From: a virus
Taxonomy: Duplodnaviria; Heunggongvirae; Uroviricota; Caudoviricetes
Length of the DNA: 64,000 nt
IMG/VR virus record: IMGVR_UViG_2778261268_000002
Direction: 5' to 3' (one strand)
Under the pieces are notes generated by a model, which did no database searches, was not told the DNA's origin, and saw nothing but the letters and a program-made list of their open reading frames with translations. Each line of letters starts with the position of its first letter. Positions within the stretch are counted from its first letter, which is position 1. Positions 16,333-50,127 of the stretch are shown here, piece after piece. A program made the position numbers and the translations under genes.

Positions 16333-16839
16333 TTGAGTATTTTCAATAAACACGCACACCAGGAACGTCCGTATATCGTCATAGTAGATATTGATGGGAC
16401 GATATCGGAGGCAACGGAAGACAGACTGCATTTACTTCCACCACCTGGCAAAGGTGCATTAACAGAGCACTGGAACGAGTTTAACCTTGCCTGTGACACT
16501 GATGCTCCCATCACTCCAGTTATTGATATGGTGCGCCAGTTGTCCAGCATTTACACGCTCTGGTTTGTAACCGGGCGCTGTGAGATAGCCAGGGATAAAA
16601 CACGAGCTTGGTTGCGTAAGCACGTAACAAATGGGGCTGAGCCTTTGCTATCTATGCGTCCTGCCACCGATGACAGAAATGACGGCCCTGCAAAGATTGA
16701 TCTCCTGAAGAAAATTGGTCTAAGTAAAATTGCGTTCGCGCTGGAAGATAAGATTGAAGTGGCGCGTGTTTTCAGGAGTCACGGCGTGCTTACGTTAATG
16801 GTCAGGGAGTATGAAAACGCGCTTCTCCATCAACAATAA
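16333..16839 (+). CDS. HAD-superfamily phosphatase-like protein
   Basis: IVIVDIDGTI matches HAD motif I (DxDGT); TTG start with strong RBS GAGGAGG. Confidence 0.55.
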   Translation: MSIFNKHAHQERPYIVIVDIDGTISEATEDRLHLLPPPGKGALTEHWNEFNLACDTDAPITPVIDMVRQLSSIYTLWFVTGRCEIARDKTRAWLRKHVTNGAEPLLSMRPATDDRNDGPAKIDLLKKIGLSKIAFALEDKIEVARVFRSHGVLTLMVREYENALLHQQ

Positions 16840-16855
16840 TTGCTCTAATAAATAT
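16839..16855. promoter_or_regulatory. C1 operator-like site
   Basis: ATTGCTCTAATAAATAT, 1 mismatch to consensus. Confidence 0.6.
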
Positions 16856-17615: not shown

Positions 17616-18252
17616 CCGTTTTTACATGATGTGCTTGCGTGAAACTGTGGGTAATAACGCCTCATTCCATTGCCATAACGGCAATGGTTACAGTTCTGAT
17701 ATCGATCGCGCTCATATTTACACGCTGGAAGAAGCCCAAAAAGCCTGGAATTGTGGGCGAGATATCGATCAGCCTGTTTGTGCCGATAGTGTGGATGCAA
17801 TGGCTGTGTGGCACGTTGATTGCCAGTACATCCCTACAGAAAGCCTGATTGAGTCAGATTGCACTGAGTATGTGGCCTACAAAAAAGGTAGCTGGAACGG
17901 CAACGATGTTTACTGGCTTCAACACGGTGGATTGCCAACAGATGACTTCAGTAAAGCGACCATCTTTAGCGTCGTCAACAAAAACGAACCAGGAATAGTT
18001 TGGTTGCCATTTTCCATTGCTGATGCAGCAAAGCGCCGGACGTTCAATATCAATAACTTTAACCGCAGAACAATGGTTCAGGGCGCAGGTTTGGTCATGC
18101 CTGACTGGTTGAAAGAGCAGAACAGAAGAAAGAAGTCGCGAAGCGGGAAGGTGCGTTGGAATTGTCCGCATTGCGGAAAAATAACCTGGCAGTACAGCCC
18201 ATATGATTTTGAAGGCTGTAGTGATTACAACTGTGAAGGATGGCGAGAATGA
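17608..18252 (+). CDS. hypothetical cysteine-rich protein
   Basis: GTG start with RBS CAGGGGG overlapping the upstream stop; C-terminal CPHCG...C...C cluster; start uncertain (TTG 17584 or ATG 17625 possible). Confidence 0.45.
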   Translation: MSNRFYMMCLRETVGNNASFHCHNGNGYSSDIDRAHIYTLEEAQKAWNCGRDIDQPVCADSVDAMAVWHVDCQYIPTESLIESDCTEYVAYKKGSWNGNDVYWLQHGGLPTDDFSKATIFSVVNKNEPGIVWLPFSIADAAKRRTFNINNFNRRTMVQGAGLVMPDWLKEQNRRKKSRSGKVRWNCPHCGKITWQYSPYDFEGCSDYNCEGWRE

Positions 18253-18902
18253 CAATTGACTATCAGGTACTGCGTGAGGCGGCAGAAAAGGCAACACCAG
18301 ACGAATGGGTCGCATTTATTTCGACGGATACTGGTACTTATGCGGTGCACACGCCCGGTGATGAACGATGTGAAGACGTTATCAAATGGACCGGCTTTGA
18401 TGGACAGAAAAATGCAGAGAACAACGCTCGTCATGTTGCCGCGTTCAACCCAAAGGTTGCACTGGAGCTGCTTGGTGAAATTAAGTGCTTGGAGGACACA
18501 AATATTGATGCCACGTGCCGAATTTCAGAGCTTGAGACTAATCTCGCTGCGCTGGTGGCAGAGAACGCTGGGCTGAAACACGCAATGGCCGTAACTCTTG
18601 AGCATGTGTCGGTCACGGATGCAGGGCAGGCCGGAGTTGCTGCAATGATTATCAACGATGCCCTGCACCACAGCGAAACTCCAGCTACCGATGCTTTCCT
18701 GTCTGAAGTGCGGGCGCAGGGGGTGGATGCTGCTATAGAAGCTGCAAAAAATCTGGTGGCCCAAGAATATGAGTATAAGGATTTCAAAGCGGCGCAGAGT
18801 GATTGCTGTATGCACCCTGGTTCAGACCTGGTAGGGAAGGTTGAAATGACTGAGTGGTTAGTTGACTTTGCTGCCCAGCTTCGCAAAGGAGGCAACCAGT
18901 GA
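18249..18902 (+). CDS. Ead/Ea22-like family protein
   Basis: N-terminal IDYQVLREAAEKATPDEW typical of Ead/Ea22-like prophage proteins. Confidence 0.5.
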   Translation: MTIDYQVLREAAEKATPDEWVAFISTDTGTYAVHTPGDERCEDVIKWTGFDGQKNAENNARHVAAFNPKVALELLGEIKCLEDTNIDATCRISELETNLAALVAENAGLKHAMAVTLEHVSVTDAGQAGVAAMIINDALHHSETPATDAFLSEVRAQGVDAAIEAAKNLVAQEYEYKDFKAAQSDCCMHPGSDLVGKVEMTEWLVDFAAQLRKGGNQ

Positions 18903-19651
18903 GCGAAATTAATTACCAGGCACTGCGTGAGGCGGCGGAACGTGCAATTCCAGCAATGGAACGCCTGTTAATGTTGCCAGCTGATGATGATTTGTTAAGT
19001 GAACAGGAACTTAAAGATTACGGTGTGGATATTGATGCGCTCAACGCCTTCAAATTTCTGACCGGACCAGAAACCGTGCTGGCGCTGCTGGATGAACGGG
19101 AAAGAAACCAGCAATACATAAAACGCCGCGATCAGGAGAACGAGGATATTGCGCTAACGGTAGGGAAGCTGAGAGTTGAGCTTGAGGAAGTAAAACAACA
19201 CGCTGAAGAATTATCCGAAACCAAGGCTGTTCGTAACCAATGGCGGCCAGATATTTGCCCAATAACCGGACGTGCATTTTTCATGTGGATTGAGCATCCA
19301 ACATTGGGAAATGTGCCGACATATGGTGGCCCATTAGATAGTTACACCATTCCAACAAAGGACGGTGACGGTGAGTTTTCATGTGAGCGTTACGATCATG
19401 ATTTTGGCGGTTGGGTAGAAAGCGAATGTCTTGGGTTATATCTGATTGATGATAGAGAACAATGCAGGGTCTACGAACTGGAGGAACGCGTTAAGGAACT
19501 GGATGCTCGGGAAATATCGCTCCCGGAACGTAGCAGCATGCTTCATCGAACAGATTTTCACGATGATTACCAAACGGTAATGGCATACAAAGTTTCTGAA
19601 GTCATCGCTGCAATCCGCGCCGCAGGCATTCGCATCAAAGGAGGTGAGTAA
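18899..19651 (+). CDS. Ead/Ea22-like family protein, paralog
   Basis: GTG start with RBS AAGGAGG; N-terminal INYQALREAAERA paralogous to the upstream gene. Confidence 0.5.
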   Translation: MSEINYQALREAAERAIPAMERLLMLPADDDLLSEQELKDYGVDIDALNAFKFLTGPETVLALLDERERNQQYIKRRDQENEDIALTVGKLRVELEEVKQHAEELSETKAVRNQWRPDICPITGRAFFMWIEHPTLGNVPTYGGPLDSYTIPTKDGDGEFSCERYDHDFGGWVESECLGLYLIDDREQCRVYELEERVKELDAREISLPERSSMLHRTDFHDDYQTVMAYKVSEVIAAIRAAGIRIKGGE

Positions 19652-19827
19652 TGCGTGTGGCATGTATCGGCTTGTTACCGTACCCGACTCGTTTTTGGGC
19701 TTCTGCGCTAATTGCAAAGCCGTATGTCCTGATGGCTGACAACATCATCCCGGCACCAAAGCGCCGCCATACCGGTATTGCAGCGGCACGACGAGCAGCA
19801 AAGAGACGCAGGAGAGCAAAGCGATGA
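19651..19827 (+). CDS. putative small basic protein (58 aa)
   Basis: Below the ORF-track cutoff; ATG overlaps upstream stop (TAATG); Arg/Lys-rich C-terminus. Confidence 0.3.
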   Translation: MRVACIGLLPYPTRFWASALIAKPYVLMADNIIPAPKRRHTGIAAARRAAKRRRRAKR

Positions 19828-20000
19828 AAAACCGTAAGGCAAAACGACTTTTTTTACAGCGACCTGTGCGTGTGGTGGAGCTGGTTATTAGCAACCATAA
19901 GATAGCGGTACTCCATCCATTTGGTCAGGTGGCTTTTGCCGCAAAGCGTAAGCCTACTGCGTCACAGAACAGGCGGAAGAAAGGGTACGCTGTAAGATGA
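19824..20000 (+). CDS. putative small basic protein (58 aa), MKNRKAK family
   Basis: RBS GGAGAG 7 nt before ATG; N-terminus MKNRKAK paralogous to the next ORF; ATGA coupling. Confidence 0.35.
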   Translation: MKNRKAKRLFLQRPVRVVELVISNHKIAVLHPFGQVAFAAKRKPTASQNRRKKGYAVR

Positions 20001-20185
20001 AAAACCGTAAAGCAAAGATTCTGTTAGTTCGTAGAAACGCTCCTGGCGTCTGGCAGTGGGTGAGACTCAGCAACCGACGGATGGGGTTGATGAAATATTA
20101 CGGGATGATGGATTGTGGTTTTTGCAAAAAGCCCAGCGCGGCGCAAAACCGCTGGAAAAACCACTTGCGCACTAAAGGAGAGTGA
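19997..20185 (+). CDS. putative small basic protein (62 aa), MKNRKAK family
   Basis: ORF-track ORF; ATGA overlap with the upstream small ORF; shared N-terminus. Confidence 0.35.
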   Translation: MKNRKAKILLVRRNAPGVWQWVRLSNRRMGLMKYYGMMDCGFCKKPSAAQNRWKNHLRTKGE

Positions 20186-20186
20186 T

Positions 20187-20702
20187 ATGGCGTTAACACA
20201 CCGCGAACTCTGTCAGATTGCGTATAAGTTCCTTAAGCGCAACGGGTTCAAGGTTTGTTTTCATGACCGCTTTATAGCTGTAACCAGTACCGGAGAACAG
20301 CCAGATGCTATGGGATTCAGAAATTCAGCATCATGCCTGATAGAGGCGAAGTGTTCTCGTGCTGACTTGTTGGCAGATAGAAAAAAGCGTTTTCGTAAAA
20401 ATCCATCTCTTGGAATGGGCGACTGGCGATTCTTTATTAGTGAGCCGGGAATTATTTCAGTTGAGGATTTACCACCTGGCTGGGGATTACTTCACGTTGT
20501 TAACGGAAGAGTACGGAAAGTACATGGGTGGCCCAAGGGTAATTGCTGTTGGGGTAATCCTGACGATAAGCCATTTACTGGAAATAAGCAGGTTGAATGC
20601 GATTACATGTTATCTGCATTAAGGCGCATGGAGTTGAGAGGGCACCTTAATGAAATATATGACGGTGTAATTGTTAATAAGAAAGAAGGAAACGCGGCAT
20701 GA
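20187..20702 (+). CDS. hypothetical protein (171 aa)
   Basis: RBS AAGGAGAG before ATG 20187; no family recognised with confidence. Confidence 0.5.
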   Translation: MALTHRELCQIAYKFLKRNGFKVCFHDRFIAVTSTGEQPDAMGFRNSASCLIEAKCSRADLLADRKKRFRKNPSLGMGDWRFFISEPGIISVEDLPPGWGLLHVVNGRVRKVHGWPKGNCCWGNPDDKPFTGNKQVECDYMLSALRRMELRGHLNEIYDGVIVNKKEGNAA

Positions 20703-21415
20703 TCACTATTACCAAAGAGCGACTACTGACAATCAAGCAGTGGCGCGAAACATACGGACCTGGTAGCAACGTTGTACTGCCAGCAGAAGAGGCGGAAGAA
20801 CTGGCACGAATTGCGCTGGCATCGCTGGAAGCAGATCCAGTTGCTTATATTTTCAAACATCCGGCCGGGAAATTATTCTGGTCTTTAACGGATGAAAGCA
20901 ATAAAGAGCAAGCGGACGTTATTCCTGTTTATGCTGCCGCGCCTGCGTCGGTTGTGCCGGATAATGCATCAGAGCCTCTTGCTTATGCTTACAAAGAGCT
21001 TACGCCTGAGATTATGCGCAACCATTTAGCTGTATTCGAGCGATATGGAATAGCCCCAAACGATAGCTCTACCACAATTCAGGCACTGCGAATCGCGCTG
21101 GATGGCATAGAGCGGAGCGACGCCATGCTTCATGGTGCCGAACCTGTAAGCCAAACTTACAAGTTGAACCAGCTATCGGGCAACTCTCCGGCAACTCCGG
21201 ATGGTTGGATAAGCTGTAGTGAGCGAATGCCGAATACCAAAACAGCCGTTCTTGTTGCCGTGGAGTTTGACAGGAAAGGTGACTGGCGAATGAAATGGGC
21301 TACTTACATCCCCGGGCATCCTGACGCTAATGATGGGTGGATAATTCCTGGTGCGTCGTGGAAACCGTCACACTGGATGCCGCTACCAGAACCGCCGCAG
21401 GAGGTGAATCAATGA
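20699..21415 (+). CDS. DUF551-like phage protein
   Basis: C-terminal DGWISCSERMP...VLVAV...SHWMPLPEPP matches the DUF551 pattern; ATGA coupling. Confidence 0.55.
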   Translation: MITITKERLLTIKQWRETYGPGSNVVLPAEEAEELARIALASLEADPVAYIFKHPAGKLFWSLTDESNKEQADVIPVYAAAPASVVPDNASEPLAYAYKELTPEIMRNHLAVFERYGIAPNDSSTTIQALRIALDGIERSDAMLHGAEPVSQTYKLNQLSGNSPATPDGWISCSERMPNTKTAVLVAVEFDRKGDWRMKWATYIPGHPDANDGWIIPGASWKPSHWMPLPEPPQEVNQ

Positions 21416-21497
21416 GCTGGCCTGAAGCATTCACCACGGTAGGAATTGTGATGGCGGCAGCACTGGGTTTGTATTCAATTTGTCGCTGGTGGTAACG

Positions 21498-21731
21498 ATG
21501 GGAAAAATAACTTTTGTAGTCGAATTTGAGGATGGCAAAGAGCCACCTGTTAGCGCCAATCTTGATGTTGCTGGTGGCAGGCTGGTTTCGGTTCTATTTG
21601 GTGATTACCGCGACGACTTCTTTCAGCCTGAAGAAGTTGATGTAGTGCGAGAAGCATTAAACGAGCTAAGTGTTGATAACGATGATGCTCATGCGGAAAT
21701 CATCAAAAAAATGGAACTGCTAACTCACTAA
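21498..21731 (+). CDS. hypothetical acidic small protein (77 aa)
   Basis: Internal ATG 21498 preceded by a GGTGG RBS-like sequence. Confidence 0.4.
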   Translation: MGKITFVVEFEDGKEPPVSANLDVAGGRLVSVLFGDYRDDFFQPEEVDVVREALNELSVDNDDAHAEIIKKMELLTH

Positions 21732-24340: not shown

Positions 24341-24400
24341 GCATCTCTCCCCTTTGAGGCCACAATTAGTGGCCTTAAACAATGTGTTTTCTACCTCGAT

Positions 24401-32212: not shown

Positions 32213-32229
32213 TAATTTATTAGAGCAAT
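32213..32229. promoter_or_regulatory. C1 operator-like site
   Basis: TAATTTATTAGAGCAAT, 1 mismatch to the reverse-complement consensus. Confidence 0.6.
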
Positions 32230-50110: not shown

Positions 50111-50127
50111 ATTGCTCTAATTAATTT
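50111..50127. promoter_or_regulatory. C1 operator-like site upstream of ssb
   Basis: ATTGCTCTAATTAATTT. Confidence 0.6.

Follow-up and report, generated by a model that had tools for sequence, protein, structure and literature searches.

A chain of three very small open reading frames (ORFs), ORF1, ORF2 and ORF3, lies at 19651-20185 on the + strand of a stretch of viral DNA of 64,000 nucleotides (nt) (IMG/VR record IMGVR_UViG_2778261268_000002; the whole stretch is referred to here as the window). Comparison with related loci suggests that the three ORFs are likely to encode real, translated accessory proteins of catalogued, uncharacterised families. A preliminary description of this DNA, made from the sequence alone, had proposed three chained ORFs of 58, 58 and 62 amino acids (aa) that are rich in Arg and Lys. 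They were found as described. ORF1 (19651-19827) and ORF2 (19824-20000) each encode 58 aa with an isoelectric point (pI) of 12.0, and ORF3 (19997-20185) encodes 62 aa with a pI of 11.3. Lys and Arg together account for 26% of ORF1, 28% of ORF2 and 26% of ORF3, compared to 12.1 +/- 3.4% (maximum 19.5%) in the window ORFs of at least 150 aa, and the net charge of the three products is +14 to +15. The novelty that the description had implied did not hold, as all three ORFs are already annotated in RefSeq (WP_001261538.1, WP_000797289.1 and WP_000797279.1, respectively) and grouped in PHROGs (ORF1 in PHROG 13831, ORF2 and ORF3 in PHROG 1380). The RefSeq label is 'hypothetical protein' and the PHROG label 'unknown function'. 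ORF1-3 are an ordinary phage accessory cassette.

The chaining by TAATG and ATGA overlaps was seen in the window. The TAA stop of an upstream Ead/Ea22-like gene and the ATG of ORF1 overlap as TAATG, the ORF1/ORF2 and ORF2/ORF3 junctions are both ATGA overlaps, and each ORF is in frame -1 relative to the preceding one. ORF1 has the strongest Shine-Dalgarno sequence of the three, AAGGAGGT at 19638-19645 (+ strand), spaced 5 nt from its ATG. The ribosome-binding site of ORF2, described earlier as good, is AGGAG at 19810-19814 (+ strand), 9 nt 5' of the ATG and within the Arg-rich tail of ORF1. That of ORF3 is AAGGG, which is weak. ORF2 and ORF3 share the N-terminus MKNRKAK, as had been noted; this start is encoded by a 21-nt direct repeat (19823-19843 and 19996-20016, 95% identical), the only direct repeat of the region. 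The C-terminal end of ORF2 is QNRRKKGYAVR and that of ORF3 is SAAQNRWKNHLRTKGE. The N-terminal half of ORF1 is moderately hydrophobic, and the protein ends in an invariant tail that is rich in Arg, PAPKRRHTGIAAARRAAKRRRRAKR.

Conservation of the reading frames in relatives had been named as a check on the three ORFs. IMG/VR, assemblies and phages in GenBank supplied about 200 related loci, retrieved partly by means of the MKNRKAK pattern, and we calculated the ratio of nonsynonymous to synonymous differences (pN/pS) from intact ORFs only. In the annotated frame, the pooled pN/pS was 0.41 for ORF1 (45 unique sequences), 0.36 for ORF2-type genes (17 unique sequences) and 0.51 for ORF3-type genes (77 unique sequences). 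Four other frames of the same alignments gave 0.91-1.46, and the antisense frame sharing third positions gave 0.51-0.66, as expected; for ORF1 the corresponding values were 0.98-1.22 and 0.51. The annotated frame had the lowest pN/pS of all frames. Per codon, conserved residues of the family of ORF2 and ORF3 (the MKNRKAK family) had a pN near 0 and a pS of 0.9-1.5, for example at K5, K7, N27, K52, Q57, K61, N62 and H63 in alignment numbering; a conserved Ser and Gly likewise had a pN near 0 with a pS near 1, and the codon of a conserved Arg alternates between CGC and AGG or AGA. Codons 37-48 of ORF1 (KRRHTGIAAARR) had a pN of 0.019 versus a pS of 0.203. In relatives, ORF1 starts with ATG or GTG (TAATG or TAGTG), always preceded by GGAGGTGAG, and its Shine-Dalgarno sequence is (A/C)GGAGGTGAG. 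The upstream ORF ends in an ATGA overlap in 150 of the 177 distinct contexts (~85%), and the next gene starts 1 nt past the stop in 87 and with a 4-nt overlap in 77 of them. Because the frames are conserved, purifying selection is seen in relatives and the overlap architecture is kept, the ORF chain is, as judged from these alignments, beyond chance.

Several points weigh against this interpretation. The constraint is moderate, not strong (pN/pS 0.36-0.51), and the ORFs chosen for the test were intact. Of the 104 unique sequences that begin with MKNRKAK, about 10 carry a truncation or frameshift or do not belong to the family, and the invariance of the N-terminus is partly a collection effect of the retrieval by pattern. 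Purine-rich ribosome-binding sites coincide with the codons of the basic C-terminal residues in ORF1 and ORF3, and at such ends pN and pS are both low, as in the last 11 codons of ORF1. DNA-level constraint therefore appears to explain part of the charge and of the conservation, and the terminal conservation may be attributed partly to the ribosome-binding site and the junction.

On the - strand, a 93-aa ORF (19436-19717) lies in the frame antisense to ORF1 in which the third positions coincide, and this frame is open in almost all ORF1 homologues (0.04 stops per sequence). Since its pN/pS of 0.51 is higher than the 0.41 of ORF1 in the sense direction, the antisense ORF is probably a by-product of codon composition. 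An Rfam search of 18500-21500 gave no match and there was no excess of RNA folding (z = +0.32). There is therefore no sign of an RNA element as an alternative to coding.

ORF1-3 might instead be chance or decaying frames in junction DNA between modules, or pieces of a larger, frameshifted gene, which would fit the -1 shift of each ORF from the one before, the relatives that are frameshifted or fused to neighbours, and the inconsistent calls made by the Prokaryotic Genome Annotation Pipeline (PGAP). This explanation is largely refuted by the sequence comparisons and very improbable: the annotated frame has the lowest pN/pS, ORF2 and ORF3 each have the full motif set described below and occur independently, the exact ORF1, ORF2 and ORF3 proteins are each found on at least 1000 contigs, and homologues at 45-60% identity keep both length and motifs.

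Another alternative is that translation itself matters, ORF1-3 acting as a ribosome relay from Ead to ORF4 (20187-20702, + strand) and the genes downstream, with the peptides being incidental. We regard this as improbable, since specific amino acids are kept though codons vary, the motifs are kept in unrelated genomic contexts, about half of the loci lack ORF2, and phage P7 couples Ead directly to an ORF4 homologue (Upf89.0) without ORF1-3. A relay would be compatible with the conserved 1-4 nt overlaps, with the weak ribosome-binding site of ORF3 and with the position of the following gene's ribosome-binding site within the last codons of ORF1 and ORF3. In ORF3, these last codons (LRTKGE) contain the strong Shine-Dalgarno sequence of ORF4, AAGGAG at 20175-20180 (+ strand), and ORF4 starts 1 nt past the ORF3 stop.

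ORF2 and ORF3 are paralogues (37% identity, E=5e-10). Both matched PHROG 1380 over their full length: ORF2 with E=6.5e-23 (residues 1-58 on positions 1-60 of the 62-position profile) and ORF3 with E=1e-40 (residues 1-62 on positions 1-62). ORF1 matched PHROG 13831 with E=1.1e-41, all of its 58 residues aligning with the 58-position profile. The three proteins are plain members of these families, from which no difference was seen, and neither family has a described function. From the alignments we derived a motif set for PHROG 1380, M[KN]NRKA[KR]xL ... [ILV]SN[RH][RK] ... G ... K.[ST]A[AS]QNR[WR]K, which is present in full in both ORF2 and ORF3 and is kept in homologues down to ~45% identity. 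The middle of the MKNRKAK family is hypervariable, with several subtypes. At 50% identity, a set of 1.84 billion proteins yielded 47 representatives of the family, which occurs in 146 phage records, including Shiga toxin (Stx) phages (EDL933-Stx, Min27 and phage 86), phiV10, the P1-like phage D6, the Salmonella phage Sasha and the virulent phage Av-05; a scan of the GTDB species-representative genomes gave no relative. The range of PHROG 1380 and PHROG 13831 is narrow, covering Escherichia and Salmonella phages. In a profile-profile comparison, no relationship was found between the ORF1 family and the MKNRKAK family.

In Sasha (locus L214, 2501-2692), the family gene is ATGA-coupled to a ParB-like gene, which is preceded by a C5-methylase and an HNH endonuclease. 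In Av-05, a phage of 121 kb, the family gene (locus L215, 2501-2710) stands in a run of small hypothetical genes. The MKNRKAK family thus extends beyond temperate lambdoid and P1-like phages.

Pfam and NCBIfam scans of ORF1-3 gave no meaningful match, and PADLOC-DB, with its models of anti-phage defence and anti-defence, gave none at E<=1. Searches of PDB sequences with single sequences and with profiles found nothing. No mention of the ORF1-3 proteins turned up in the literature when it was searched by accession, motif and PHROG identifier, and the supplementary tables of two accessory-gene screens contained no match to them. One distant family member (P0084) among the 38 searched matched Pfam DUF7279 at 17.8 bits (E=0.003), below the gathering threshold of 24.5 bits; the window ORFs did not match DUF7279, a homologue search from P0084 returned P0084 alone, and this candidate was rejected. 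Small basic ribosomal proteins (bS21, bL34 and similar) were likewise rejected, the window ORFs having no Pfam or NCBIfam match to them; Ribosomal_L24e gave a single chance-level match (E=0.1) among the 38 family members.

The database records of these small genes are uneven. PGAP called from one to five 'hypothetical proteins' on identical or near-identical copies of the region and left ORF2 uncalled in NZ_CP007136.1; small-gene annotation is therefore inconsistent. Four family 'proteins' (P0054, P0060, P0075 and P0041) are frameshift variants or mis-called ORFs, read for part of their length in the +1 frame of ORF3 (window 20056-20175; GETQQPTDGV...LQKAQRGAKPLEKPLAH). Three more (P0069, P0094 and P0095) are deletion fusions with ORF4 or with an alternative downstream gene. 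Judging by these sequences, frameshift and deletion-fusion cases of this kind probably gave rise to the PHROG 'fusion' families 9263 and 12350. A functional link between ORF3 and ORF4, considered on the basis of PHROG 9263, PHROG 12350, P0069, P0094 and P0095, was rejected because these seem to have arisen by deletion, frameshift or read-through.

The cassette is modular. ORF3 was found alone in 42 loci and ORF2 together with ORF3 in 40, and ORF1 usually precedes the ORF2 or ORF3 copies. ORF2 and ORF4 are optional, and other loci have unrelated genes in place of ORF4. First-position copies of the MKNRKAK genes, such as ORF2, end in ...QNRRKKGYAVR, which carries the ATGA for the following copy; last-position copies end in ...QNRWKNHLRTKGE, which carries AAGGAG for the following gene. 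Some MKNRKAK genes are chimeric and recombined inside the AAQNR core. The junction DNA GCAGGAGAGCAAAGCGATGAAAAACCGTAA (window 19808-19837) encodes the ORF1 tail RRRAKR* here. In other phages (L004, L006, L017 and L022, around 2985-3014) the same DNA, in another frame, encodes the tail AGEQSDEKP* of an Ead-like gene that ends 14 nt into the MKNRKAK gene. By this comparison, 19808-19837 is a shared recombination junction read in two frames, and the shuffling of the cassette, as it appears across loci, is what recombination at gene junctions ordinarily produces in the accessory regions of phages.

Where ORF4 is absent, as in L004, L084 and L085, its place is often held by a 69-aa Cys-rich protein (MAIAASYTMHLYCDC.QCT...GHKVLRINK), which starts at the same junction, 1 nt past the stop of the ORF3 homologue.

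An AlphaFold model of ORF3, built on a 38-sequence alignment, had a predicted local distance difference test score (pLDDT) of 84.2. Its elements are ordered as a helix at 4-11, strands at 19-23, 28-33 and 38-43, and a helix at 48-59, giving an alpha-beta3-alpha arrangement. In the model, the variable part of the protein would form the sheet, the conserved Ser-Asn and Gly would lie in turns, and the two conserved basic segments would form the terminal helices, which are rich in Asn, Gln, Arg and Lys. No significant structural neighbour was found for the model, and the sole Foldseek match in BFVD was the MKNRKAK family member from Av-05.

The order of secondary-structure elements is the same as in the alpha-beta3-alpha folds of dsRBD and HicA, and HicAB chains occurred among the non-significant Foldseek matches. 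ORF2 and ORF3 could on this basis be small RNA-binding toxins of a HicA-like or dsRBD-like kind, which we consider very unlikely. Neither ORF2, nor ORF3, nor any of the 38 family members matched the Pfam dsRBD or HicA_toxin profiles, and a dsRBD or HicA-like fold was rejected for ORF3, the model of which gave no significant superposition on a chain of either kind. The resemblance in predicted topology is only a lead.

The DNA of the ORF region is 100% identical to that of P1-like plasmids and Escherichia coli prophages, and the part from ORF1 to ORF4 is ~92% identical to phage TL-2011b. The 535-bp stretch of ORF1-3 had a match in 602 of the 5,426 complete E. coli genomes. The 17-bp consensus of the P1 C1 operator, as quoted in PMC8546580, is ATTGCTCTAATAAATTT. 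The window contains 13 matches with at most 3 mismatches, compared to 0.35 expected; these span 653-50127 and include 653-669, 16839-16855, 32213-32229 and 50111-50127. This marks the window, on sequence grounds, as a P1-like phage-plasmid. Lambdoid and Stx prophages carry this cassette in the early-left accessory region, where ea22-like genes precede it and xis/int follow.

Comparison with RCS47 and P7 places pmgS and pap upstream of the ORF region. Directly after pap there is a promoter-like site at 16811-16840 (+ strand), the -10 of which overlaps a C1-repressor operator, ATTGCTCTAATAAATAT, at 16839-16855 (+ strand, 1 mismatch). At the same spot after pap, P7 is annotated with Op(hea), 'predicted to regulate expression of hea operon'. 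It is probable that the putative promoter/operator at 16811-16855 is the start of the operon that holds ORF1-3. No terminator-like site was found on the + strand between 16855 and 20185, the first convincing one being at 24353-24379. As the operator lies on the promoter and no terminator-like site occurs until 24353-24379, ORF1-3 are probably within a tightly packed operon of ~7.5 kb that is repressed by C1.

Directly 5' of ORF1 there are two tandem Ead/Ea22-like genes (18240-18902 and 18899-19651) with an ATGA overlap. The second, on the + strand, encodes 250 aa (Pfam PF13935, E=2.7e-29; RefSeq WP_001289898.1). The variants of both genes are highly mosaic between loci, with 26-100% identity depending on the segment. 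On the other side, ORF4 encodes 171 aa, and its stop overlaps a DUF551 gene (20699-21415) as ATGA. ORF4 has a motif, PD...(12 residues)...EAK (QPDAMGF...LIEAKCS), with the look of a PD-(D/E)XK nuclease; no match was found for it in Pfam, NCBIfam or PDB, nor in PADLOC at E<=1. It is intact here, and its full 516 nt are annotated in P7 (Upf89.0) and TL-2011b. RefSeq records with identical DNA list only a 179-nt 'frameshifted' pseudogene.

From this arrangement we propose that ORF1-3 are three separately translated small genes of a 'moron-like' accessory cassette in an operon of a P1-like phage-plasmid. With a C1 operator on the operon promoter, they would be kept off in the lysogen and switched on early upon induction or infection; in lambdoid phages the cassette would be driven by pL and likewise early. 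Ribosomes may be handed from gene to gene across the TAATG and ATGA overlaps. Recombination at the conserved gene junctions would reshuffle the cassette, so that ORF2 and ORF4 come and go, and ORF1-3 would be dispensable accessory factors.

The proteins may bind a polyanionic target early in lytic growth, RNA or DNA being the most likely kind. A polyanionic ligand is the best guess given that the proteins carry +14 to +15 and that Asn, Gln, Arg, Lys, Trp and His positions on the two helices are invariant. The preliminary description had likened the three products to small nucleic-acid-binding or regulatory peptides, a suggestion with which the charge and the conserved helices would agree. That the target is a nucleic acid is a tentative suggestion drawn from the protein sequences, and it is weakened by the finding that Pfam, NCBIfam, PDB sequence and profile, and structure searches detected no nucleic-acid-binding domain or fold. 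A broader proposal, which builds on the model and is speculative and rather doubtful, is that the PHROG 1380 proteins form a new alpha-beta3-alpha class of ~60 residues, whose two basic helices would recognise, early in infection, a specific RNA or DNA or a defence component based on nucleic acid, with ORF1 as an Arg-rich partner and the variable subtypes of the sheet reflecting an arms race.

Instead of a nucleic acid, ORF1-3 could bind a specific protein of the host or of a rival phage, in counter-defence or host takeover. The surroundings would suit such a role: the accessory region evolves fast and has Ead/Ea22, DUF551, ASCH and nuclease-like genes around the cassette, the middle of the MKNRKAK family is hypervariable, the cassettes are mosaic and optional, and the family is also present in the virulent Av-05 and in Sasha, near methylase, HNH and ParB-like genes. 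We nevertheless hold a protein target to be unlikely. Neither PADLOC, searched with ORF1-4, nor the tables of the two accessory-gene screens gave a match, and the small anti-defence proteins that have been characterised are mostly acidic or neutral, not +14, which counts against it.

A second lead on nucleic-acid binding comes from the Arg-rich-motif RNA-binding peptides, such as N of lambda and P22 and Nun of HK022, in which an Arg-rich helix binds an RNA hairpin (boxB/nut). The invariant tail of ORF1, KRRHTGIAAARRAAKRRRRAKR, is similarly short, Arg-rich, Ala-rich and probably helical. In ORF1, however, the motif is C-terminal, not N-terminal, no homology was found, and no cognate RNA hairpin was identified, no search aimed at one having been made; this analogy to N and Nun is only a lead.

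Among known systems, ORF1-3 can be compared with the small proteins of the exo-xis or 'ea' region of lambda and Stx phages, which include Ea8.5, Orf60a, Orf61, Orf63 and Ea22 (PMC8614690, PMC3824215, PMC7093339). In lambdoid prophages they share with ORF1-3 the neighbourhood between ea22-like genes and xis/int. The two groups appear alike in being non-essential early genes for small proteins, and ORF1-3 are not among the exo-xis genes named in the abstracts of these papers. No sequence relationship was detected between them, and ORF1-3 are far more basic; the cassette occupies the position of ea8.5 and is yet unrelated to it.

Collectively, ORF1-3 are likely to be real, and they are widespread, being present also in 933W-type and Min27 Stx phages and in P1-like plasmids. 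The finding itself is of little consequence beyond housekeeping. With the coding-potential argument, the definition of the motifs and the confident fold model, there could be a case for adding ORF1-3 to phage accessory-gene screens. They would be of moderate interest if they proved to bind nucleic acid specifically or to serve Stx or P1-like phages in counter-defence.

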